DNA of 64,000 bases, from NCBI GenBank assembly GCA_001899315.1, contig MOYA01000004.1, positions 54,477 to 118,476 of the forward strand. The letters run 5' to 3'. A program made the translations under genes and the position numbers. The stretch comes from Candidatus Obscuribacter phosphatis. Lineage in GTDB: Bacteria; Cyanobacteriota; Vampirovibrionia; Obscuribacterales; Obscuribacteraceae. Positions within the stretch are counted from its first letter, which is position 1; each line of letters begins with the position of its first letter. Below, piece by piece: positions 2,158 through 59,206 of this stretch. A model generated the notes under the pieces. The model had not been told where the DNA came from. It was given only the letters and a program-made list of their open reading frames with translations, and ran no database searches.

Positions 2158-2234
2158 GGGATCGTAGCTCAGTTGGTTAGAGCGCCTGCCTGTCACGTAG
2201 GAGGTCGCGGGTTCGAGTCCCGTCGGTCCCGCCA
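2158..2234 (+). tRNA. tRNA-Asp (GTC)
   Basis: 77-nt cloverleaf folded by hand. Acceptor GGGATCG/CGGTCCC, D-arm GCTC..GAGC, anticodon stem CCTGC/GTAGG with loop CTGTCAC (anticodon GTC), T-arm GCGGG TTCGAGT CCCGT. CCA is encoded. Confidence 0.95.
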
Positions 2235-4477: not shown

Positions 4478-5215
4478 ATGGCTGAACAAACGACTTCCCG
4501 TCGGCAACTGACCGGTACGCTCTTTCTCATCGGCGGAAGAGCCAACATGACGCTCAAGCGCTTTGTCGAATTAGCTGGAGGCAAAGCCGCTTCCATCGTC
4601 ATCATCCCGCATGCCAGCGGAGTTGCCGAAGAGACCTGCGCCGATCTGCACAAAGCTTTCGACGAGCTTGGAGCCGGTCTGGTTACAAGCATCATGCCGC
4701 CTGCCGAAGGCGACACAATCCCTCAACGGCTCCCAGCCGGCACCAATGCGGTCTACATCACCGGCGGCGATCAGAAGCGCCTGATCGAACTGGTGTCTCC
4801 CGAACTGCTGTCAGACATAATCGCCGTTCTGGACAATGGCGGTGTCGTGGCTGGTACCAGTGCCGGTACTGCGGCCGCAGCCGAAACCATGATCGCCAGA
4901 GGCATGGATAGCGGCATCATCGATGTGGAAGCGCTGGAGCTCTCCCCCGGCTTCTCCCTGGCTCCCGGCTTCGTCTTCGATACCCATGTCGGAGAACGAG
5001 ACAGGCAGAATCGCCTGACAGTAGCCATTCACAGGCTGCCCAGCTTCTTCGGCATCGGGCTCGACGAAGACACCGCAGTCGAGCTGACGGCTTCCGGTGC
5101 TGTGGTTTCCGGCAAAGGCTTGGCGCGGTTCTATCGACTCCCCAAAGGCTCGAAGAATCTGCTCGAGAATGTCCAACTGACGGAACTCGCAGACGGTCAA
5201 ACCTGGACCATCTAA
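4478..5215 (+). CDS. peptidase S51 family (cyanophycinase / peptidase E-like)
   Basis: GGAGA before the ATG. Motifs LFLIGGR, ITGGDQKRL, AGTSAGTAA (nucleophile Ser context) and FDTHVGERDRQNRL match the S51 cyanophycinase pattern. Confidence 0.75.
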   Translation: MAEQTTSRRQLTGTLFLIGGRANMTLKRFVELAGGKAASIVIIPHASGVAEETCADLHKAFDELGAGLVTSIMPPAEGDTIPQRLPAGTNAVYITGGDQKRLIELVSPELLSDIIAVLDNGGVVAGTSAGTAAAAETMIARGMDSGIIDVEALELSPGFSLAPGFVFDTHVGERDRQNRLTVAIHRLPSFFGIGLDEDTAVELTASGAVVSGKGLARFYRLPKGSKNLLENVQLTELADGQTWTI

Positions 5216-5473: not shown

Positions 5474-6373
5474 TTGAACTTTTTGGCTTCAAAACACGTC
5501 TTTAACTACAGCGCCAAAAGCTGCCCAAACGCCCTTGCTAAAGGTTCCAAAGTAGGGAGAAAACTTCTCGTGGAAAATGACAGTAACAATTTTTCTCTAG
5601 AGTCGACTGCAAAAGATAAAGAGAGATTCAAAAACTCCAAACGCAGAACTTACGGTTCTCTGGATTTCGTCAAGCGATTCATATCGAACCTGAGTATGGA
5701 AACGATGTTCACAACAAGAGAGCTGCTGCCTCTGGTTCAGTATCGAAGTGTTTTAGACACATTCTTGTCTCGTGCCGTTAAGTCTGGTTACCTGGAAAGA
5801 CTAGCTCGTGGAGTTTTCAGAGTCAGCACTCGCATTACTAGATTTGTTACCGACGAGGAGATAGTGGCAGTGAAGCGCAAGTCGTTTAACAATCTCGTTC
5901 TGACGACAGAGAAGTCGCGCACAGAGCTAAAGATAGTCACTACAAGGAAACCAAAACCTGATGTGCCTTGCGTAATGCGTCAACCTGAGTTCCAAACACT
6001 AGGCACACAAACCAGTTTGCAGACAAACTTGGTCAATTTACTTGATACCGTAAACGGAGCCAAATACGTCCAGTGCTCAAGCAAGATCTTATTGCGACCA
6101 ATCGGCAACAGGAAGGCCGCGCTTGGAGAAACCAGAGTAGGACGAATTCTTAGAGAAATTTGGGACAAAGGAAAGGGCAAAACCACTAAAGAGGAGATAC
6201 AAGAAATCTGCGGTCGCTTGAGGAGAGAAGAAAGAATCGAACTAGTAAAGCTGCGAAAATTCATACCGCAATGGCTGAGTGAAATGCTTCCAAAAGCACC
6301 AGCAGCAGCTCTGTATAGAATCCTCGAAGAGACTCATAAGAAAAAGAGCAGATCACGAAGATTCAGCCTATAG
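5474..6373 (+). CDS. basic hypothetical protein with AbiEi-like winged-helix segment
   Basis: 299-aa ORF; TTG start is uncertain. FTTRELLPLV..LDTFLSRAVKSGYLERLARGVFRV resembles the L-x-R-L-x-x-x-G-x-L-x-R-(L/V)-x-R-G-V-(Y/F) motif of AbiEi-type antitoxin N-termini. Lys/Arg-rich C-terminus. Confidence 0.5.
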   Translation: MNFLASKHVFNYSAKSCPNALAKGSKVGRKLLVENDSNNFSLESTAKDKERFKNSKRRTYGSLDFVKRFISNLSMETMFTTRELLPLVQYRSVLDTFLSRAVKSGYLERLARGVFRVSTRITRFVTDEEIVAVKRKSFNNLVLTTEKSRTELKIVTTRKPKPDVPCVMRQPEFQTLGTQTSLQTNLVNLLDTVNGAKYVQCSSKILLRPIGNRKAALGETRVGRILREIWDKGKGKTTKEEIQEICGRLRREERIELVKLRKFIPQWLSEMLPKAPAAALYRILEETHKKKSRSRRFSL

Positions 6374-13829: not shown

Positions 13830-15914
13830 CTACTTAATCGCCTCGATCTTGATCAGCTTGGGACCGAAACGATCCGAACTTTCCGGGTCGTCCTGCGGCA
13901 CTTGGCCCAAGACCGGATTGCGCTTGCCGTTCGAACCATCCGGGTAGGGATGCAGTTCGTCCATGCGCTTCTCCACCATGGGTGCAGTTACCACCGAGAG
14001 ATGCGCCCGGGTCAGTTCCCAGGGAGTGCGCACACCGGCTGTCTTGAGGAACATGAGCAGGGACCGCTGCAGGACCATGTTGTAGTTGGCCACTTTCACA
14101 TACTTGTCCTGCGGATCAAGACCACGACGCAGACGGGGGTCTTGAGTCGTAATGCCGGTCGGGCACTGATTGGTGTGGCAGCGCAGAGCCATGATGCAGC
14201 CTTCGGCAATGAGGTTGCCACGGCCGATGTTGACCATGTCGGCGCCCATGGCGATAGCAATAGCCACATCATCGCCGCGAGCAATTTGACCAGAGGCGAT
14301 GAGCACGGTTTCGTCGCGCACACCATGCTTACGCAGGATGTTGTCGACGATGGGAATGGCATGCAAAATAGGCAGACCAGCGCGATCGGCTAGGTCGACC
14401 GGTGCTGCACCAGTGCCGCCCTCGCCACCATCGATGGTGATCCAGTCCGGAGCCTCGCCGCTCTCCTTCATGTAGCGGGCGATCTCTTCGATGGCTTCTT
14501 CTCGACCGACGACAATCTTGATGCCGACCGGCTTGCCGGTGGTTTCTTGCATCAGTTTGACGAAGCGGAAGAGCGAAGGCACATCGTTGAATTCGTCCCA
14601 GGCATTGGGAGAATAGCAGTCTTCGTTCTGGGGAATACCGCGCCAGAGAGCCAGCTCGGGAGTGATCTTTTCTTTCGGCAACTTACCGCCCTGACCGGGT
14701 TTTGCACCCTGAGCCAGTTTCAGCTCGAAGCCGACGATCTGATCGTTCTCCGCCACCTGCCGCACCTTTTCCAGGTCAAGCATGGTGAAGGGCTGTTCCA
14801 TTGCCTGTCCGGCAAAGCGATAGATGCCGCGCAGGGTCTGCTCGGCAATGGCACGGGTGACCGACTTGCGGAAGCCAAACTTGGCCGGGCCAAGCTGGAC
14901 GATGATGCGACCACCGCCCACCACTTCGCCGGTCGGTTCGGTCGGAACCGAAACCAGACCAAAGGTCAGCGACGAGAGCAGCTTACGCACTTGCCAGCGC
15001 GTTTTCTTGTCGGCCTCCACCCGTTTGACCACGCCATCCAGGTGATAGGGGGTGAGCCCGCCTTCACCGGTGAGCATGTGGATATTGGCCAGCTTGGCAC
15101 CACTCGACAGAGCCTGAACAGCTTCAGCCGAGAGAGCACCCCAGCTCATGCCCGAGATATTGATCGGCCACGGACAATGGTAAGGCTTGCGGCGCTTGGC
15201 ACCGATGACCAGGGGCGGCAGACGGTTGCCCATGCGCTCGGTATCAGGAATCGGGAAGAGCCCCGGCAAGATATGGATCTCGCCTTCCTGATTGTATTTG
15301 CGCTGGGTGCCGAAGCCCAAGTTGTTGTTGATGCCCTTGGCGGAGCGATAAATATAGCGCCGAGTCACCCGATTATAGGGCGCCTCCTCGGTATCGCTCA
15401 TAAACCAATACTGCCGCAATTCGTCGCCGATGAGCTCGAAGCCATAACGGCACCAGCCAATGAGCGGGAAGTTGCGACGGATGGTGTGCTTGCGCTGCAG
15501 AAAATAGTCGTGCACGGCCACCTGGGTGAGGAAGGTCATGAGGGCAAAGATGAGCCCCGCCATTTCACTGAGGAAATGCCAGCCCAGCCACCAGGCCAGG
15601 AAGGTAAGACCGAGCGAAACAGGCAAGGCCACACTTTGCCTTTGCACGAACTCGTTGATGGAAACCTGGATGGCCACGGCCAGAACGCCGAGCACCAAGC
15701 CGTATTCCAGACCGGCGAAGCGCCAGCCCAGGGTTGTGGCAATGATGGTGATGGCAACAATGGCGTGGTGATGACGCTTGAGGTCGCGCACGCTCAAGGC
15801 GAGAGCGCCGCCTACGATTGTGAATGCCAGAGCCGAGGCGCCACCGTCGCCGATTGTCCAACCGGCTAGACCGCCAAGTAGCGCCAATGCTGTTGCAAAG
15901 ATGATCCAGAACAT
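13830..15914 (-). CDS. FMN-binding glutamate synthase family protein (GltS FMN domain) with N-terminal TM region
   Basis: ORF 13830..16079 trimmed to ATG 15914 (MFWIIFATAL...). PWPINISGMSWGALS, LTGEGG, KLAQGAKPGQGG, TIDGGEGGTGAAP and CHTNQCPTGITTQ are typical of the family. Confidence 0.85.
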   Translation of the reverse strand: MFWIIFATALALLGGLAGWTIGDGGASALAFTIVGGALALSVRDLKRHHHAIVAITIIATTLGWRFAGLEYGLVLGVLAVAIQVSINEFVQRQSVALPVSLGLTFLAWWLGWHFLSEMAGLIFALMTFLTQVAVHDYFLQRKHTIRRNFPLIGWCRYGFELIGDELRQYWFMSDTEEAPYNRVTRRYIYRSAKGINNNLGFGTQRKYNQEGEIHILPGLFPIPDTERMGNRLPPLVIGAKRRKPYHCPWPINISGMSWGALSAEAVQALSSGAKLANIHMLTGEGGLTPYHLDGVVKRVEADKKTRWQVRKLLSSLTFGLVSVPTEPTGEVVGGGRIIVQLGPAKFGFRKSVTRAIAEQTLRGIYRFAGQAMEQPFTMLDLEKVRQVAENDQIVGFELKLAQGAKPGQGGKLPKEKITPELALWRGIPQNEDCYSPNAWDEFNDVPSLFRFVKLMQETTGKPVGIKIVVGREEAIEEIARYMKESGEAPDWITIDGGEGGTGAAPVDLADRAGLPILHAIPIVDNILRKHGVRDETVLIASGQIARGDDVAIAIAMGADMVNIGRGNLIAEGCIMALRCHTNQCPTGITTQDPRLRRGLDPQDKYVKVANYNMVLQRSLLMFLKTAGVRTPWELTRAHLSVVTAPMVEKRMDELHPYPDGSNGKRNPVLGQVPQDDPESSDRFGPKLIKIEAIK

Positions 15915-15963: not shown

Positions 15964-15983
15964 AATAACCGATATCGGTTATT
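15964..15983. promoter_or_regulatory. perfect 20-bp palindrome AATAACCGATATCGGTTATT (copy 1)
   Basis: Self-complementary. Lies 50 nt upstream of the gltS-like start (15914) and downstream of the pepN-1 stop (16117). Identical core at 30583-30602. Confidence 0.7.
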
Positions 15984-30109: not shown

Positions 30110-30469
30110 ATGACCAGCGATCAAGAACTGAAAAACCGCATCGCAAGTGCACTCTACAATGCCGACCCTGAAGGTCTGGCCGTAACTGCTGCACCCAGCG
30201 ACGAATACTCATCCGAAGCCGAAATCATCATGGATCGCCTTGCTGAGATCAACTCAGCCAGCGACATGGCGGTGCTGATTGCCAACGTCTTCCGTCGGCA
30301 ATTCGGATGGGGCACAGTAGCAAATGCTTCTCAGTCAGAGCCTTCAGATCACGAATGGGCGGAAGCTCAGCCGCTGTATTCCGAGGCCGAGCTAGACCAA
30401 ATCTACAATCCTGAATCAGAGGTATACAAAATCCTCGGTCAGGAAATATGGAACCTGGTCAACGATTGA
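30110..30469 (+). CDS. small acidic hypothetical protein
   Basis: AGAGGA SD, 119 aa, followed by a strong terminator. Confidence 0.6.
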   Translation: MTSDQELKNRIASALYNADPEGLAVTAAPSDEYSSEAEIIMDRLAEINSASDMAVLIANVFRRQFGWGTVANASQSEPSDHEWAEAQPLYSEAELDQIYNPESEVYKILGQEIWNLVND

Positions 30470-30540: not shown

Positions 30541-30581
30541 GCAGAGCCTGATAGCGCAATCAATCAGGCTCTGCTTTTTTT
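30541..30581 (+). terminator. rho-independent terminator
   Basis: 12-bp stem GCAGAGCCTGAT / ATCAGGCTCTGC followed by T7. Confidence 0.85.
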
Positions 30582-30603
30582 GAATAACCGATATCGGTTA
30601 TTC
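30582..30603. repeat. perfect 22-bp palindrome GAATAACCGATATCGGTTATTC (copy 2)
   Basis: Self-complementary over all 22 nt. Directly abuts the terminator T-run, in a convergent intergenic region. Confidence 0.85.
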
Positions 30604-30806
30604 AGTTACGAGCAAATACCGCAACCAAATAAAAGACTATTTTTTTTAGCCAATTCTGCTACTGCATTACGTAGTAACAAACGCTAGGAAGCCAGCTCAT
30701 GCTGTTTAGAAGCCAAAGCCATTTACCTACGAAAGGTCCTCCCGCATACGGGCCGTCTTACATTTGCTCAACATACATTTCACAAAAATAAATCAGTCAG
30801 TCATTC

Positions 30807-32132
30807 TCAGCGTTTCATGCATATAGAAAGCACTGTTCCCGTCCTCAGCTTACGCATTCTGTCAGAACCCACATAACCTCGAGCCAGACAACTCGCAAAA
30901 ACATAACCCCTAACCTCGGACCTCTCAGATGGACCTTGAAGTTTAGAAGAGAATTGCGGGCAAGAAGAGAAGAAATTGCTGCCAATAATCGGACGAGGCA
31001 AAACAAACTGCGTTGAATTAGCAATGATGTGCATCAAGCCGCTGTATACGTAGAGATACTTTCTACTAATACGTCGACAATAATCTACGAGCAGCTCCAT
31101 AAACTCAAAGCAAGCCTTCTCAAGATTCTCTCGACTTTCACTTTGTACTCTTCCTGAACAAAGAGAACTTTGACACTTTGGCTTGCCGATAGCTATAGAG
31201 CAATCTGCTAAGCCTGATGAGTCAGAATTTCCGCCGTCTGGCTCCGCAACCCTGATCTTGAGTTTGCATCCCGGAAGAGACTCTATCAATCCATAAATTT
31301 GAAGCATGGCTATAGTTGAGTTAACTTCTGCAGTTGAGACATCCAGTTTGGCGCAAATCGAATCAATTTCATCACATCCGTTAGCAATAACAGCTAGCAC
31401 TTTAGATTCGAGTTCCGAAAGGTTTTCGCCAGAAGATGACTGATGAGGTTCAATCTGACTTGGGTGTCCAGTAATATTGGAAACACTAACGGCCGAGCTA
31501 GAAGCAGGCGCCTCACTAAAGTCGTGAACTTCAAATTCAACATCGACAGACTCTTCTTGACTCTCACAATTGGAGCGCTGCTCGTATAAGCGTTCGGCAT
31601 TTTCTTCATAGCAAGGATGCAGCCACATTGGTGAAGCAAGGCTTCTTTTGGCAAAAACAAAACTGAAGTGCGATGAGCTAAACTCCTTACATTCGCTGCA
31701 CTTAGCTGCCGCAGCTGCGTCAAGAATTGAGCGAGTTAAATTCAGGGCGGAAGAGTACGCAAGGCCAGTCAAAGCGCACAAGAAACTAGAATTGACTATA
31801 ACTCCATGTTCGTACAACCAAATGGCTGAAAACCAGGCTCTTATATTCCTTACGCGCTCGAAAAATGTACCAGCAGTCAGGCTCATGCGTCTTTTACAAA
31901 TCAAGCATTTGAACTCTCTAGAACCTTCTTGAATCTCAATTTGGTCCGAAAGACAAAGACGACAATATAAAAAACCACCACTAGTCAAGCTATCAATCAA
32001 GTCTCTCCAGCAAGTCTCAGGGTCTGGATAGACTTCATAGAAGGAACGCCACACACTACCTACATATTCTATTTTGTCTCTAGAATCGCATCGTTTGGCT
32101 ATCTCAACTAAGCCTTCTTCTAGTGGTCTCAC
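30807..32132 (-). CDS. IS1595-transposase-derived protein lacking DDE core; Zn ribbon plus DprA-like winged helix (paralogue A)
   Basis: ORF 30807..32270 trimmed to GTG 32132 (AAGGAGG 7 nt upstream). CRLC...CLIC..SLTAGTFFERVRNIRAWFSAIW..LTGLAYSSALNLTRSIL; central acidic linker plus LSELESKVLAVIANGCDEIDSICAKLDVSTAEVNSTIAMLQIYGLIESLPG; C-terminal RRISRKYLYVYSG. Confidence 0.7.
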   Translation of the reverse strand: MRPLEEGLVEIAKRCDSRDKIEYVGSVWRSFYEVYPDPETCWRDLIDSLTSGGFLYCRLCLSDQIEIQEGSREFKCLICKRRMSLTAGTFFERVRNIRAWFSAIWLYEHGVIVNSSFLCALTGLAYSSALNLTRSILDAAAAAKCSECKEFSSSHFSFVFAKRSLASPMWLHPCYEENAERLYEQRSNCESQEESVDVEFEVHDFSEAPASSSAVSVSNITGHPSQIEPHQSSSGENLSELESKVLAVIANGCDEIDSICAKLDVSTAEVNSTIAMLQIYGLIESLPGCKLKIRVAEPDGGNSDSSGLADCSIAIGKPKCQSSLCSGRVQSESRENLEKACFEFMELLVDYCRRISRKYLYVYSGLMHIIANSTQFVLPRPIIGSNFFSSCPQFSSKLQGPSERSEVRGYVFASCLARGYVGSDRMRKLRTGTVLSICMKR

Positions 32133-32208
32133 TTGATCGTCCTCCTTACTCCTATAAGTAAGAACGTAATTTCGAGAGAAAAAGTTCAAAAGATTGAGAT
32201 AAATTCTG

Positions 32209-32228
32209 AAAAACCGATATCGGTTATT
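32209..32228. promoter_or_regulatory. 20-bp palindrome copy 3 (AAAAACCGATATCGGTTATT, one mismatch)
   Basis: 77 nt upstream of the paralogue A start. It lies inside the spurious N-terminal extension of the raw ORF. Confidence 0.7.
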
Positions 32229-32640
32229 CCGAAAATCAAGAAACCAAAAAACAAAATTCTTTTGGTCCAAGGCAAACCAGATTTCATTAAATCTGCTTGA
32301 CAGCGTGCCAGCTATTCAGTAGTCTTGCCTTGAGACATTTGTCTCGTTTTGCAGGAATCACTTACCAAACCTACCAATCCAATCATCTTCATGCTTAAGT
32401 GCTTGATGGTGTGTTCCCTCGGCTGATAATGATAAGGCTCCTAGCTTTTGCTGGATCTATCAAATAGGCAGGCAACACCCCTTTCAACTCATTCAGCATA
32501 GTACCCAGCCTCTCAAAAACTTGAGGCATTGACGATAGCACTTGCACAGTTGTCAATTGCTTCTACCGGAAAAATATTGGGTATGAACTGACTTAGTTGA
32601 AAACAGGCATCTTAAGGTGCAGAATTGCCAGGAGAATGTC

Positions 32641-56933: not shown

Positions 56934-57494
56934 ATGAAGAAGAACAGAGTTATCTTTGACGGCGGCGATTTCTTGATTAGAGATTTCATTAGGGATGATG
57001 CCGAAAGCCTTGCCTTGAGCGGAAACGATCGCGAAGTTTGGCTATGCCTTAGAGATCGCTTTCCAAGCCCCTATACCAGAAGGGACGCTCTAGACTGGAT
57101 AGACTTAGTCAATAATTCCAACCCGAAAATCAACTTTGCCATTGATGTAGAAGGCAGAGTAGCAGGCGGAATCGGTCTGATGCTACAAACAGATGTCGCT
57201 CGTGTAAGTGCCGAAATCGGATATTGGCTCGGCAAAGAATACTGGGGCAAAGGCATCATGACCAAAGCCGTATCAGGCATGTCGGAATGGGCCTTCTGCA
57301 ATTTACCAATCACCAGATTGTACGCACTTGTTTTCGACTTCAACAAAAGTTCTGCTCGAGTTTTAGAAAAATGCGGCTATCAGCTGGAAGGACGTCTGCG
57401 CAAAGCTGCCATCAAAGATGGAAAAGTTGTAGACGAACTTCTATACGCAAAAATTAGAGATGAACTGAGCACTGAAGCAAAACTTCAAAGCTAG
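56934..57494 (+). CDS. GNAT N-acetyltransferase (RimJ/RimL-like)
   Basis: ORF trimmed to ATG 56934. IGYWLGKEYWGKGIMTKAV and NKSSARVLEKCGYQLEG are typical GNAT motif A/B contexts. Confidence 0.8.
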   Translation: MKKNRVIFDGGDFLIRDFIRDDAESLALSGNDREVWLCLRDRFPSPYTRRDALDWIDLVNNSNPKINFAIDVEGRVAGGIGLMLQTDVARVSAEIGYWLGKEYWGKGIMTKAVSGMSEWAFCNLPITRLYALVFDFNKSSARVLEKCGYQLEGRLRKAAIKDGKVVDELLYAKIRDELSTEAKLQS

Positions 57495-58936
57495 AAACTG
57501 AGAGAAATCTCGACTGTCATCGGTGTGGTAAAGGCCCTCAACTTCCTAGAACCAATATAACCAGTCCTAAGACAGTTATCCAGAAGCTGCAGTTTAAGCC
57601 GGTTTCTGGACTCATCTCTGAGAAAATGTAAGACCGCCTCAGAACCATCGCTCTCATCTAAAATACCTGGTATAAAGCGAAGTGCAGAACCATATATTTG
57701 CAAATACTTTCTTGATATTCCACCAAAAATAAAGTTTATGCCAGCTTTGAATGCTTCCAAAGATAGCCGCAGAGCCGCTTCCCCATCAAATCTCTGACAA
57801 AACAAACATCTATCTGCTAAGCATTTCCGAATTGCTCTCTTTGTTAAGGAAAGCTTGTCTCTGCGCTCATATCTAAGATCTGCAGAGCGCCAACTAGCAT
57901 GCACGTCGCCATTCTCCAATCCATCAAAATACACATGCCTTTCGTAATCAGGACCTTTGAACTCCTGGTCCTCTCCCTCCCAGAATGAACCTGTATCTTC
58001 AGATTCGGCACTATCATTATCAAATGAACTAGCATTCGAAACTCTGTTTTTCACAACTGAAAATTTCAAACCAGCTAGTTCCTCAATTAGACCTTCTATT
58101 TGAAGCTCGGTCATTACTGCTGAGATATCAGAAATGGAGCGACCCAACACCTCACAAAGATCATCAAAACCCAGTGGTCTATCGCCCAGTACTGCCAATA
58201 AAGAAAAGGCTAGTTCTCTCTGCTTATCATCTGAAAAACAACTTTCTACTATATCCGAAGGCTTTGAGCATTCCGGATCATCTGCTGAGTCATTATCAAA
58301 ATCACGCTCTTTGTAGTAGGCATTCTCACTACTTTTCTCTGCAGATTCACCATGATCATTAGATTGGGAGCTAATTCTAGAATGGAGACGGCCCTCGTAA
58401 ACTTCTTCTTCAAACGGCCTAAGCCATCTAGGAGTTGCTAGACTACGCCTAGAAAACAAATCTAAAAAGTGTACGCTACTAATACAAACTCTCTCTTCCT
58501 TGTCCTTTTCTGATAGATCTACCGCAGCAAGAAGACTCTTTAATATGTGCTGTGCCGAAGAAATGCGAAGCCCAGACAAATCTGCAAGCATCAGTGAATT
58601 AACAAGTGCACCTCGCTCAAGCAGCCACATAGCCCCAAGCCAAGCACGCAGTTTTCTGACACCGGCAAAAAATGTTCCAGCAGATAAGGAAGAAGTTGAG
58701 TGACATTTAGAGCATCTAAATTTTCGGTGCCCATCTTTGAACTTAAGAGACTTGCTGAAACATTTGTGACAGAACAAAGCATCCTTCTCTCTGAGCTTGC
58801 CGTTCAGCCAAGACCAACAAAAATCTTCAGTCGGATAGGCAAGCTCAAACTCATGCCAAATACTCTTTACGAACTGATCTCTTCTGTCGCGTATCGCTGG
58901 ATCTTCGTGGAAAGAACGAAAAAATGGCTGTGACAT
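57491..58936 (-). CDS. IS1595-transposase-derived protein lacking DDE core (paralogue B)
   Basis: ORF trimmed to ATG 58936. CHKC...CSKC..SLSAGTFFAGVRKLRAWLGAMW..LSGLRISSAQHILKSLL; acidic linker; LLAVLGDRPLGFDDLCEVLGRSISDISAVMTELQIEGLIEELAG; GGISRKYLQIYGS. Confidence 0.7.
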   Translation of the reverse strand: MSQPFFRSFHEDPAIRDRRDQFVKSIWHEFELAYPTEDFCWSWLNGKLREKDALFCHKCFSKSLKFKDGHRKFRCSKCHSTSSLSAGTFFAGVRKLRAWLGAMWLLERGALVNSLMLADLSGLRISSAQHILKSLLAAVDLSEKDKEERVCISSVHFLDLFSRRSLATPRWLRPFEEEVYEGRLHSRISSQSNDHGESAEKSSENAYYKERDFDNDSADDPECSKPSDIVESCFSDDKQRELAFSLLAVLGDRPLGFDDLCEVLGRSISDISAVMTELQIEGLIEELAGLKFSVVKNRVSNASSFDNDSAESEDTGSFWEGEDQEFKGPDYERHVYFDGLENGDVHASWRSADLRYERRDKLSLTKRAIRKCLADRCLFCQRFDGEAALRLSLEAFKAGINFIFGGISRKYLQIYGSALRFIPGILDESDGSEAVLHFLRDESRNRLKLQLLDNCLRTGYIGSRKLRAFTTPMTVEISLSF

Positions 58937-59019
58937 TTTCAACACCTTGAGAGGTCCTGTTACTAATAACGATGTCAATAGGAAAAAAGTTCAATTTTTC
59001 CTTCGATTTTTATCTTTGA

Positions 59020-59055
59020 ATTTGATCCGGAGCCGATACCGGTTCCGGATCAAAT
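59020..59055. promoter_or_regulatory. 36-bp near-palindrome with CCGATACCGG core
   Basis: ATTTGATCCGGA GCCGATACCGGT TCCGGATCAAAT: perfect 12-bp arms, 32/36 positions symmetric. Lies between divergent genes (58936 minus, 59207 plus). Confidence 0.7.
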
Positions 59056-59206
59056 CTAAACATCTCGATTGAATTTGAACCTCGTCTGACCTCTTGCACG
59101 CGCAGACTTCGAGGCTAATTAGAGGGCTAAGGTGATTTAGTTTCAAACGTCCCATTTAGGGGAATACAACAGATAACCTTTATTCGGAGACATATAGGAG
59201 CTCGTC

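Follow-up and report, generated by a model that had tools for sequence, protein, structure and literature searches.

An apparently exapted IS1595-type transposase family of Obscuribacterales with a DprA-type winged helix in place of the DDE core

Gene A and the layout of its protein

The window analysed here is a stretch of 64,000 nucleotides from contig MOYA01000004.1 of Candidatus Obscuribacter phosphatis. Gene A, located on the minus strand (30807–32132, including the stop codon), encodes a 441-aa protein resembling an exapted IS1595-type transposase. The reading frame extends from a GTG at 32132 to the stop codon at 30807–30809, with a Shine-Dalgarno sequence (AAGGAGG) 7 nt 5' of the GTG. 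In the orthologues L012 and L015, an ATG is found at the same codon. The motifs and coordinates quoted for this gene in the initial annotation, which had been made from the sequence alone, are all present, and SLTAGTFF, RAWFSAIW, LTGLAYSSALNLTRSIL, RRISRKYLYVYSG and CRLC...CLIC, the latter comprising the zinc-ribbon cysteines C57/C60/C76/C79, correspond to conserved columns in a 135-sequence alignment of the family.

The N-terminal part of protein A (residues ~26–145; 31698–32057, minus strand as all following segments) contains a Cys4 zinc ribbon, the TAGTFF/RAWFSAIW motifs and an HTH, and has a pLDDT of >90 in the structure model. It is followed by a family-specific junction (residues ~146–180; 31593–31697) with the motif S..F...F.RRS..TP...HP..E, in which R163 and S164 are invariant and S153, F156, T167, P173, and E176 are kept in at least 94% of the members. 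Residues ~181–232 (31437–31592) comprise a helix and an acidic, Ser-rich linker which is predicted to be disordered (pLDDT <50 for residues 194–229); this is the fastest evolving segment (pN ~0.3). The DprA-type winged helix, which is matched by PF17782, is formed by residues 233–295 (31248–31436). A second linker (residues 296–329; 31146–31247), also predicted to be mostly disordered (pLDDT <50 for 301–318), leads to the C-terminal helices (residues 330–441; 30810–31145), which carry the motif (G/R)ISRKYL..Y and are homologous to the last helix and the tail of IS1595 transposases. A disordered insert within this part (residues 381–397) is specific to one clade.

Relationship to IS1595 transposases

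In Pfam and NCBIfam scans of protein A alone, DprA_WH is the sole model above its cut-off. The models Zn_ribbon_IS1595 (PF12760) and DDE_Tnp_IS1595 (PF12762) remain below threshold; of the 38 members, the former matches 16 (best E-value 1.4e-4) and the latter 4. Of the profile searches suggested in the initial annotation, the one for the winged helix was thus positive and the two for IS1595 domains were not, so that profile-profile comparison was needed. By this method, the family aligns with nine IS1595 transposases colinearly from end to end (hhalign probability 99.8%, E 5e-29). The N part of protein A alone aligns to positions 13–129 of the profile built from these nine transposases (E 6.4e-26) and the C part alone to positions 246–308 of 313 (probability 97%, E 9.1e-11). 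These independent and colinear alignments, with E-values of about 6e-26 and 9e-11, confirm the earlier assignment of a zinc ribbon/HTH N-terminus and a C-terminal tail of the IS1595 type. Junction, linker and winged helix, tested separately with hhalign, have no similarity to IS1595 transposases. Genuine IS1595 transposases match gene A solely in its N-terminal region in tblastn and hmmsearch, and a tblastn search of plasmids with the N-terminus of one family member mostly retrieves genes annotated as IS1595 transposases, together with some unannotated stretches (E down to 3e-8). Shared with the IS1595 (ISXO2-like) transposases are the Cys4 zinc ribbon, the T-A-G-T-x-F ... W-x-x-A-I motif and the HTH at the N-terminus as well as the G-x-x-H-G-V-S-x-K-H-L-x-x-Y-L helix and tail at the C-terminus. 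In contrast, the DDE core of these transposases is replaced in the family by DprA_WH and linkers.

For about 115 positions of the IS1595 profile, including those of both invariant Asp residues, nothing equivalent is found in any of the six frames of gene A. The matches to DDE_Tnp_IS1595 span only positions 111/113–146 of the 153 profile positions in the two members that were checked residue by residue. The column aligned to the invariant Glu of the transposases contains Glu in only 6 of 135 members; most have A, L, I, or W instead. Judged from its sequences, the family consists of the ends of an IS1595-type transposase without the RNase-H-like DDE catalytic core, and the loss of the core claimed in the initial annotation holds. 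The position of the core is taken by a loop with the RRS..TP..HP.AE motif, acidic disordered linkers and the DprA-type winged helix.

The sub-threshold Pfam models on protein A might suggest a decaying IS1595 pseudogene or a chance or low-complexity match. This reading has a negligible probability and is already refuted by profile-profile E-values of 1e-26 and 1e-10, by the existence of 685 full-length relatives, by a dN/dS of 0.2, by invariant family-specific residues, and by confident structure models.

The winged helix and predicted structures

DprA_WH (PF17782) scores 29.7 bits (cut-off 22.9; E 6.5e-7) over residues 233–288 of protein A and is detected in 36 of 38 family members (best E 7.6e-16), which agrees with the earlier proposal of a DprA-like winged helix in place of the core. 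The Rossmann-like DNA-binding domain of DprA (PF02481) has no match in Pfam scans of the 38 members at E ≤10. While the winged helix is common to the family and DprA (Smf), the absence of the Rossmann-like domain means that the family protein is not a DprA.

The model of protein A has an overall pLDDT of 78, with disordered linkers flanking the winged helix. Residues 233–295 themselves reach a pLDDT of ~95, and their predicted structure has the wHTH fold of winged-helix transcription regulators. A Foldseek search of the PDB with this model yields only generic wHTH matches, among them DtxR, OhrR, LexA, and Z-alpha, which align over ~60 residues with an rmsd of 1.4–3 Å and E-values of at least 0.09. 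Assignment to a known defence protein was rejected, as PADLOC also gave only generic wHTH matches. For P0012, a natural member without a winged helix, the model has a pLDDT of 94.2 and a pTM of 0.90; in this high-confidence prediction, the N and C parts are packed against each other as a single compact domain. The best Foldseek match of this model in the PDB has an E-value of 1.5, and a sequence search of the PDB gave only zinc-ribbon noise, with TnsD at E 0.64. A solved structure of such a module was not found, which adds to the value of a pLDDT 94 model of the IS1595 N- and C-terminal parts. In BFVD, Foldseek found two viral proteins with E-values of 1e-4 and 7e-3.

Paralogue B and the wider family

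Gene B (57491–58936, minus strand) encodes a 481-aa paralogue with the same layout as gene A (tblastn E 2e-44). Its protein is 28.5% identical to protein A over residues 16–439, i.e. over the full length. The initial annotation had recognised this second gene of the same architecture, which lies at a distance of 26.8 kb. In a full-alignment search at E ≤1e-30, the family comprises ~685 clusters at 50% identity. GTDB representatives contain 133 family loci. A single genome can have as many as 7 divergent paralogues, and the paralogues are 20–31% identical to A. Every family source bearing a name is a metagenome-assembled genome (MAG) of the Obscuribacterales/Melainabacteria. No partner gene is conserved near the family members, whose neighbourhoods consist of unrelated housekeeping genes. 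The architecture had not been recognised as described before, and no published description of such a family was found in the literature searched; on this basis it is a large, previously undescribed family found so far only in Obscuribacterales/Melainabacteria.

Domesticated transposases that serve as DNA-binding factors comprise the eukaryotic CENP-B/pogo, FHY3/FAR1 (Mutator), and DAYSLEEPER (hAT), and a bacterial example of domestication is TldR, which is derived from TnpB. The family has in common with them that an end-binding domain is kept and catalysis is lost (here by sequence), that inheritance is vertical and under purifying selection, and that the proposed role is binding of specific host DNA sites. 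It differs from these cases in being bacterial and of IS1595 DDE origin, in the exchange of the core for a winged helix of other origin, and in its expansion to several paralogues per genome, all of which have a covarying palindrome of their own. To our knowledge, most well-documented cases in which a DDE transposase has become a host protein are eukaryotic, and clear bacterial cases are few. This gives weight to a family of ~685 clusters, seen so far in one bacterial order, whose catalytic core is cleanly replaced by a winged helix.

Inheritance of genes A and B

Orthologues of gene A with 92, 75, and 74% identity are found in the same gene order at three other loci, and gene order is also kept around the orthologues of gene B (98 and 77% identity). 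The dN/dS is ~0.2 for gene A, with the N-terminal domain as the most constrained part, and ~0.18 for gene B. Both genes occupy the same chromosomal slots where the orthologues are only 75–77% identical and dS is ~0.7–0.8. Near-identical copies of family genes are absent despite hundreds of full-length relatives. A and B are single-gene units that are inherited vertically and evolve under purifying selection. The term ‘domesticated’ used in the initial annotation is borne out by the conserved gene order at three loci, the dN/dS of ~0.2, the lack of near-identical copies, and the unrelated housekeeping neighbourhoods; that gene A is a host gene and not an insertion sequence is supported. An intact DDE triad, TIRs combined with a target-site duplication, or a lack of profile matches to IS1595 termini, any of which the annotation had named as speaking against its interpretation, were looked for and not found. 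IS1595 elements are mobile with TIRs and target-site duplications, in contrast to the family, which is fixed in the chromosome with paralogues of ~25–30% identity.

Gene A is bracketed by a pair of inverted repeats (30576–30605 and 32206–32235; 30 nt, 90% complementary) located ~200 nt downstream and ~80 nt upstream of the ORF. Each arm is itself one of the palindromes which the initial annotation had listed at 30582 and 32209, and orthologous loci show the same fixed arrangement. Because of these flanking palindrome copies, the initial statement that terminal inverted repeats are missing is literally wrong for A. The second half of that statement stands, since no target-site duplication is present at the outer edges of the palindromes (GGCTCTGC vs TCAAGAAA). 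From their sequence context, the palindrome copies flanking gene A do not behave as ends of a mobile element.

It could still be argued that the unit has remained mobile as a non-autonomous IS1595 derivative, with the palindromes as its ends and an intact transposase acting in trans, in a loose parallel to REP elements and RAYT transposases. Such mobility would fit with two palindrome copies 1.6 kb apart around gene A, with the occurrence of the palindrome elsewhere in these genomes, and with one genome that harbours six dispersed paralogues of 68–88% DNA identity. In the older members of these six, the common block begins a few nt before the palindrome. However, the youngest duplicate pairs have 50–260 nt in common beyond the palindrome, which is therefore not the duplication boundary. 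An element bounded by the palindromes is ruled out by this likeness past the palindrome and by the fixed gene position. The conserved slots of A and B, the lack of a target duplication, and the absence of near-identical copies also speak against mobility, as does the fact that gene B and most other relatives have only the upstream copy. Furthermore, control IS1595 elements are ~1 kb long and have non-palindromic TIRs of 25–36 bp, which abut or overlap the ends of the ORF in most of them. A still mobile unit is thus very unlikely. A derivation of the palindrome from former IS1595 TIRs was also rejected, because the control TIRs show no convincing likeness and a single TATCCGGTTA is probably due to chance.

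The family shares with REP/RAYT systems the combination of a transposase-derived host gene with a short palindromic repeat that is found flanking the gene (in A only) and elsewhere in the genome. RAYTs, which belong to the HUH/Y1 enzymes (IS200/IS605 type), have kept their catalytic residues. The homology of the family is instead to the DDE-type IS1595 transposases and not to HUH/Y1 enzymes; the catalytic core is missing, and most members have a single upstream palindrome linked to a promoter.

Palindromes at the family genes

The palindrome upstream of gene A (32206–32235) contains the core AACCGATATCGGTT at 32212–32225. It ends 22 nt before a -35-like box and starts ~80 nt before the start codon, and it is identical in the orthologous loci and recurs throughout the family. 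The second A-type palindrome (30576–30605), located ~200 nt downstream of gene A, includes the perfect 24-mer TGAATAACCGATATCGGTTATTCA (30581–30604). It adjoins a terminator-like hairpin (30541–30574) and is kept in L011 and L012 though the surrounding spacer has diverged. A third site is the exact A-type 20-mer AATAACCGATATCGGTTATT at 15964–15983, for which 0 copies are expected by chance. It lies ~50 nt upstream of a gene with a Glu_synthase domain (13830–15914, minus strand) and is a candidate for an additional target site of protein A. The three A-type sites in the window have identical arms. Upstream of gene B, a near-palindrome of 38 bp, GATTTGATCCGG-AGCCGATACCGGTT-CCGGATCAAATC (59019–59056), forms a conserved block in an otherwise diverged spacer.

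Across the family, the palindrome extends to up to 24 bp and consists of a near-invariant CGATATCG centre and covarying arms. At ≤2 mismatches, 53 of 76 family genes have it in their upstream region (29-fold enriched), and with a looser model it is found for nearly all. In the arms, 90.9% of the positions are complementary, and 118 double-sided changes are found compared to 33 ± 5 in shuffled controls, none of 500 shuffles being as high. The arm variants differ among the paralogues of one genome and are common to orthologues across genomes.

These properties could mean that the architecture is exapted as described above while the palindrome acts mainly through nucleic-acid structure, either as a cruciform or hairpin or as a structural insulator before the promoter. 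In this case, the family protein would read the shape of the palindrome, or the palindrome would act without a protein. This is suggested by the 22 of 52 distinct sites that are perfect 24-bp palindromes, by compensatory changes at 10 of the 12 pair positions, and by the 38-bp version at gene B. In one clade, orthologues with 81–92% identity differ by 1–3 fully compensatory arm changes, although the recognition segments of their HTH and winged helix are nearly identical; for the positions concerned, a base-pairing constraint therefore fits better than base-specific readout. On the other hand, the CGATATCG centre is near-invariant even though the paralogues are only ~25% identical as proteins, and this constancy requires recognition of the sequence itself. 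G:T and A:C mismatches (17 vs 24) show no strand bias, so that a hairpin in one RNA strand is disfavoured and was rejected. In addition, the palindrome precedes the promoter and is therefore not part of the predicted mRNA, and it is not followed by a T-run as in a terminator. A mainly structural role is therefore considered unlikely. A bolder version, which is improbable as well, holds that an expanded set of paralogues, each with its own covarying palindrome, recognises the latter as an extruded hairpin or cruciform. If this were true, the combination of an IS1595 end-binding domain with a DprA winged helix would represent a novel regulatory or DNA-organising system, its set of members would be co-induced by an ECF sigma factor, and a partner enzyme might enable site-specific DNA transactions at the palindromes.

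The promoter motif

Between palindrome and start codon, genes A and B have the motif TTGAAC-N17-CGT (32164–32189 and 58969–58994, respectively, both on the minus strand). It is present in 72 of 76 family loci (~300-fold enriched) with a spacer of always 17 nt, and there are only three copies within the window. The promoter of the SigW regulon of B. subtilis has the sequence TGAAAC-N16-CGTA. By its resemblance to published ECF promoter consensus sequences, the family promoter is regarded as ECF-sigma-like; an ‘AAC’ -35 element, a ‘CGT’ -10 element, and a rigid spacer are in common, here at the level of the sequence motif. Neither a sigma-factor domain nor an ECF sigma gene was found among the scanned ORFs of the window. 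Each diverged paralogue has thus kept a recognisable cis module consisting of a covarying palindrome and a promoter with fixed spacer.

The 250 nt upstream of gene A are ultra-conserved. A small ORF in this region was rejected, as its stop and codons are not conserved, and so was a structured RNA, as the folding z-scores are -0.6 and -1.3. A search of Rfam with the region upstream of A gave no match.

Possible function of the family proteins

From these sequence features we infer that the family proteins may be DNA-binding factors, as proposed in the initial annotation. The preferred reading, to which a probability of about one half is assigned, is that of an exapted IS1595 family which is encoded behind a palindrome and an ECF-type promoter and acts as a DNA-binding regulator. 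Its most likely function would be that of a stress-induced DNA-binding regulator which binds the palindrome of its own gene and a small number of further sites. The ability to cut and join DNA would have been lost, and the protein would have become a sequence-specific or structure-specific DNA-binding regulator. It would bind the palindrome probably as a dimer, via the domain that formerly recognised the ends of the transposon, and the winged helix would make a second contact to DNA or to a partner. Each protein would control its own promoter and a few palindrome-bearing sites, which for A may be 30583 and 15964, and the whole set of paralogues could be switched on jointly by one alternative (ECF-type) sigma factor. 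For the uncultured Melainabacteria, the family offers a protein together with candidates for its DNA target and for its induction signal, all of which can be directly tested in vitro.

Alternatively, palindrome and promoter could be bound by other regulators while the family proteins have another role on DNA, such as handling of incoming or damaged DNA by means of the DprA-type winged helix, or serve as adaptors in an ECF-sigma stress response. One palindrome consensus is common to most paralogues, with exactly AACCGATATCGGTT in 18 of 52 distinct sites, as expected from one shared trans factor. The similarity of the winged helix, which is closest to that of DprA, also points in this direction, as do the invariant RRS..TP..HP.AE motif and locus L061, where the gene directly upstream of the family gene is ComF-like and has a promoter of this type as well. 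However, the transposase-derived DNA-binding domain is the most conserved and constrained part of the protein, the arm variants are lineage-specific among the paralogues of a single genome, the Rossmann-like domain of DprA is absent, and no conserved partner gene is found nearby. This alternative is therefore regarded as doubtful.

For the preferred reading of a DNA-binding regulator, the base-pairing-like compensatory changes in the arms of one clade are counted as an argument against it. The same applies to the distance between palindrome and -35 box, which varies from 19 to 123 nt, so that there is no overlap with the promoter as in a simple repressor site. A lack of a functional theme among the other genes adjacent to palindromes is likewise counted against this reading. 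Copies of the palindrome at other genomic sites, some of them within coding sequences, lie next to genes for an HtrA-like protease, an FMN oxidoreductase, a Ser/Thr kinase, and TPR, NAGPA, and START proteins, and one copy is located within FTHFS.

Architecture and origin of protein A

Gene A (window 30807-32132, minus strand) encodes a protein of 441 aa. Its open reading frame could begin at TTG 32270, but the evidence is consistent with translation from GTG 32132: an AAGGAGG sequence is located 7 nt upstream of this codon, and in other assemblies the orthologues, likewise of 441 aa, carry ATG in its place. The features that the initial annotation had read from the sequence are all present in the protein, namely CRLC...CLIC (C57, C60, C76, C79), SLTAGTFF, RAWFSAIW, the HTH-like LTGLAYSSALNLTRSIL, a Ser/Glu-rich stretch, a winged-helix-like segment and the C-terminal RRISRKYLYVYSG. 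The second gene of the same architecture was found as well, 26.8 kb from gene A (gene B, 57491-58936, minus strand); it is the only paralogue detected in the window by tblastn and shares 28.5% identity with residues 16-439 of protein A (E 2e-44).

The sole above-threshold Pfam match of protein A is DprA_WH (PF17782; residues 233-288, 29.7 bits at a cut-off of 22.9), which is also found in 36 of 38 relatives with a best E value of 7.6e-16. Zn_ribbon_IS1595 is detected in 16 of the 38, in each case below threshold (best E 1.4e-4), and DDE_Tnp_IS1595 in four; in two relatives examined in detail, the latter match covers only the end of the profile (positions 111/113-146 of 153). When the N-terminal 153 residues of one relative were compared with 72,556 plasmids by tblastn, the annotated matches were mostly 'IS1595 family transposase', with E values down to 3e-8 and alignments spanning the zinc ribbon and HTH. 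Nine aligned transposases from these matches served as a comparison profile, to which the family aligns colinearly over transposase positions 12 to 308 of 313 (profile-profile comparison, 99.8% probability, E 5e-29), and with E 5e-30 after removal of the winged helix. Taken separately, the N part matches positions 13-129 (E 6.4e-26) and the C part positions 246-308 (E 9.1e-11, 97% probability); the linkers, the winged helix and the junction motif, a family-specific RRS..TP..HP.AE stretch between N part and linker, each reach a probability of 0.1%. In the reverse search, the N-termini of A and B were the sole regions of the window matched by the nine transposases, with E values as low as 5e-10.

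As judged from these alignments, the family lacks the DDE triad, since the invariant D137 and D204 of IS1595 transposases fall within a stretch that is missing, the column opposite the invariant E264 is rarely Glu (6 of 135 sequences, with A, L, I, W, S or V in the others), and an HMM built from the nine transposases detected nothing of the catalytic core in the six frames around A or B. Among acidic columns of the family, E176 alone is conserved at 90% or more. The separate N and C matches, the PF17782 match and the missing core bear out the earlier proposal of an IS1595 shell without a DDE core, and show that the family derives from an IS1595 transposase that has lost its catalytic core and received a DprA-type winged helix.

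An AlphaFold2 model of protein A from a 135-sequence alignment (pLDDT 78, pTM 0.67) comprises folded parts at residues ~20-190, 240-295 (the winged helix), 330-375 and 410-438, with disorder predicted for 194-229, 301-318 and 381-397. Foldseek matches in the PDB were confined to wHTH domains, aligned over about 60 residues, including DtxR, OhrR, LexA, Z-alpha and FtsK-gamma. Three natural family members of ~271 aa (P0012, P0050 and P0101) are devoid of linker and winged helix. In the model of P0012 (pLDDT 94.2, pTM 0.90) the N and C parts form one compact domain, which shows the winged helix to be inserted within a loop of the transposase-derived module. A Foldseek search with this compact module found no significant PDB neighbour (best E 1.5); in BFVD, it has weak matches to two unnamed viral proteins.

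Distribution of the family

A word-indexed profile search identified at least 195 clusters at 90% identity, with the same architecture in every match listed. HMMER, run exhaustively on 1.84 billion representatives, returned 685 proteins at E<=1e-30, and among the 150 matches listed essentially all were full-length. The family was confirmed at 133 loci of GTDB species representatives. Informative source names all refer to Candidatus Obscuribacterales or Melainabacteria. Several family-bearing MAGs are labelled Proteobacteria, Flavobacterium psychrophilum, Oculatellaceae or Drouetiella and are probably mislabelled or contaminated bins.

Single genomes contain four to seven divergent paralogues. 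Their neighbourhoods consist of housekeeping genes and differ completely from one paralogue to the next, so that no conserved partner gene was found beside them. In assembly JAJPGY01 ('Proteobacteria bacterium'), six dispersed paralogues share 68-88% DNA identity (L020, L030, L031, L034, L038 and L049), indicating a recent lineage-specific expansion. The proteins are annotated as 'hypothetical' in their sources, and no published description of them was found; within the literature searched, the family appears to be an undescribed exapted transposase.

Gene A as a host gene

Orthologues of gene A with 92%, 75% and 74% identity keep the gene order, which comprises a CNNM transporter, a deacetylase, serS, a 402-aa gene, A, a 119-aa gene and a 465-aa gene. 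Orthologues of gene B with 98% and 77% identity are also syntenic. By the Nei-Gojobori method, dN/dS is ~0.20 for gene A (at dS ~0.8) and ~0.18 for gene B, with the strongest constraint on the N-terminal domain (pN ~0.08 versus pS ~0.46) and the weakest on the linkers. No near-identical copies of family genes were found. Conserved gene order, dN/dS values of ~0.2 and this lack of near-identical copies support the initial reading as a domesticated transposase: the family is vertically inherited, under purifying selection and expanded into paralogues, and gene A is a host gene and not an insertion sequence.

The initial annotation had also reported neither inverted repeats nor target duplications. 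Indeed no target duplication was found at the flanks of gene A, but the absence of inverted repeats did not hold, as two copies of a palindrome flank the gene. These copies could be taken as the ends of a mobile unit, as could the block shared by the six paralogues of one genome, which begins near the palindrome. This explanation was rejected because the chromosomal positions are conserved, most members carry only one palindrome copy, and in the youngest duplicates the shared sequence runs on for 50-260 nt past the palindrome. Control IS1595 elements are about 1 kb long, and most have non-palindromic TIRs of 25-36 bp that overlap the ORF ends.

The region between the upstream palindrome of A and the divergent gene at 32617 (~32236-32420) is non-coding. 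About 200-250 nt of it are almost identical in the window and in loci L011 and L012 from other genomes, even though gene A has diverged from L012 at synonymous sites (pS ~0.49). A 26-codon ORF in this region is not conserved between the window and the orthologous loci, where its stop is lost and changes are non-synonymous. The conserved stretch has no Rfam match and RNA folding z-scores of only -0.6 and -1.3; the sole Rfam match in the window is a tRNA gene at 2158-2231 (plus strand).

The palindrome and promoter module

The palindrome AACCGATATCGGTT occurs exactly at 15967, 30586 and 32212 and with two mismatches at 59031 upstream of gene B, where about 0.03 matches are expected by chance in the window. 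Orthologous loci retain both copies flanking A, including in places where the spacer around them has diverged, and the palindrome of B likewise forms a conserved block within diverged spacer. In other genomes, the 450 nt preceding the gene contain it with at most two mismatches in 53 of 76 loci, mostly 45-190 nt upstream, a 29-fold excess over the rest of the loci. When variants are allowed, almost all loci contain a CGATATCG-centred palindrome 19-123 nt upstream of a second motif, TTGAAC-N17-CGT. The latter is present in 72 of 76 loci, an enrichment of about 300-fold, and its spacer invariably measures 17 nt. Each paralogue is associated with both a conserved palindrome and a promoter of fixed spacer length. 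ECF sigma promoters are characterized by 'AAC' at -35, 'CGT' at -10 and a rigid spacer, and TTGAAC-N17-CGT is a putative promoter of this type.

The palindrome is up to 24 bp long and perfect in 22 of 52 distinct sites. Across 12 arm pairs of these sites, complementarity is 90.9% of positions (71.6% shuffled, 18-45% slid), and double-sided changes number 118 versus 33 +/- 5 in shuffled arms, a value reached in 0 of 500 shuffles; 10 of the 12 pairs show compensatory change, with the usual reservation that the sequences are related. The mismatches lack strand bias (G:T 17, A:C 24), which argues for a constraint on DNA rather than RNA. Paralogues in one genome carry differing symmetric variants, such as TACCGATATCGGTA, GTTCGATATCGAAC, CATCGATATCGATG and GACCGATATCGGCC, which are common to their orthologues in other genomes, and the three A-type sites in the window have the extended arms AATAACCGATATCGGTTATT in common.

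The family protein would bind the palindrome via the domain that formerly bound transposon ends. Many transposases repress their own promoter from the left end; the family protein may regulate its own gene and a few other sites, and an ECF-type sigma factor could induce the whole paralogue set. The main uncertainties are that the palindrome may be read as a hairpin or cruciform rather than as duplex, and by a factor other than the family protein. In one clade, orthologues that are 81-92% identical and have nearly identical HTH and winged-helix segments differ by one to three arm changes, all of them fully compensatory and none one-sided, so that base pairing or arm-to-arm conversion would explain the changes more easily than base-specific readout by a protein. 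With the conserved cis module, the function of the family protein becomes directly testable.

The window contains exactly three copies of TTGAAC-N17-CGT, located upstream of A (32189), upstream of B (58994) and at 5474-5499 (plus strand). The third precedes a gene at 5570-6373 (plus strand) and follows a 'ATTTAATC' box as in several family promoters. The 267-aa product matches AbiEi-type wHTH regulators at its N-terminus (Pfam AbiEi_4, 26.7 bits; PADLOC AbiEi, E 1.8e-14), and the gene may belong to the sigma regulon of the family genes. The only other clear non-family examples of this promoter (TTGAACTTTTT-N12-CGT) in ~0.65 Mb of fetched loci (~1.3 Mb on both strands) belong to a ComF-like phosphoribosyltransferase gene directly upstream of a family gene (L061, 3116-3849) and to an OsmC-like gene (L020, minus strand, ~6300).

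Further observations concern individual palindromes. In the 38-bp palindrome of B (59019-59056), the asymmetric centre appears flipped between orthologues (AACCGGTATCGGCT in the window, AACCGATACCGGTT in L013, ~4880-4920, and L017), and the outer arms remain palindromic. The exact 20-bp A-type copy at 15964-15983 is located downstream of an M1 aminopeptidase gene and ~50 nt upstream of a Glu_synthase-domain (FMN) gene (13830-15914, minus strand); in another genome (L073), a palindrome also precedes an IMPDH/FMN-type oxidoreductase gene. Three genomes share a copy, AACCGATATCGGAT, that falls within the formate-tetrahydrofolate ligase coding region (L053 6015, L054 6119, L080 6017). The downstream palindrome of A directly abuts a putative terminator of the 119-aa gene (30110-30469), made up of a GC-rich hairpin, GCAGAGCCTGAT ... 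ATCAGGCTCTGC, and a T-run behind it (30541-30580); hairpin and palindrome are kept as one block in orthologous loci.
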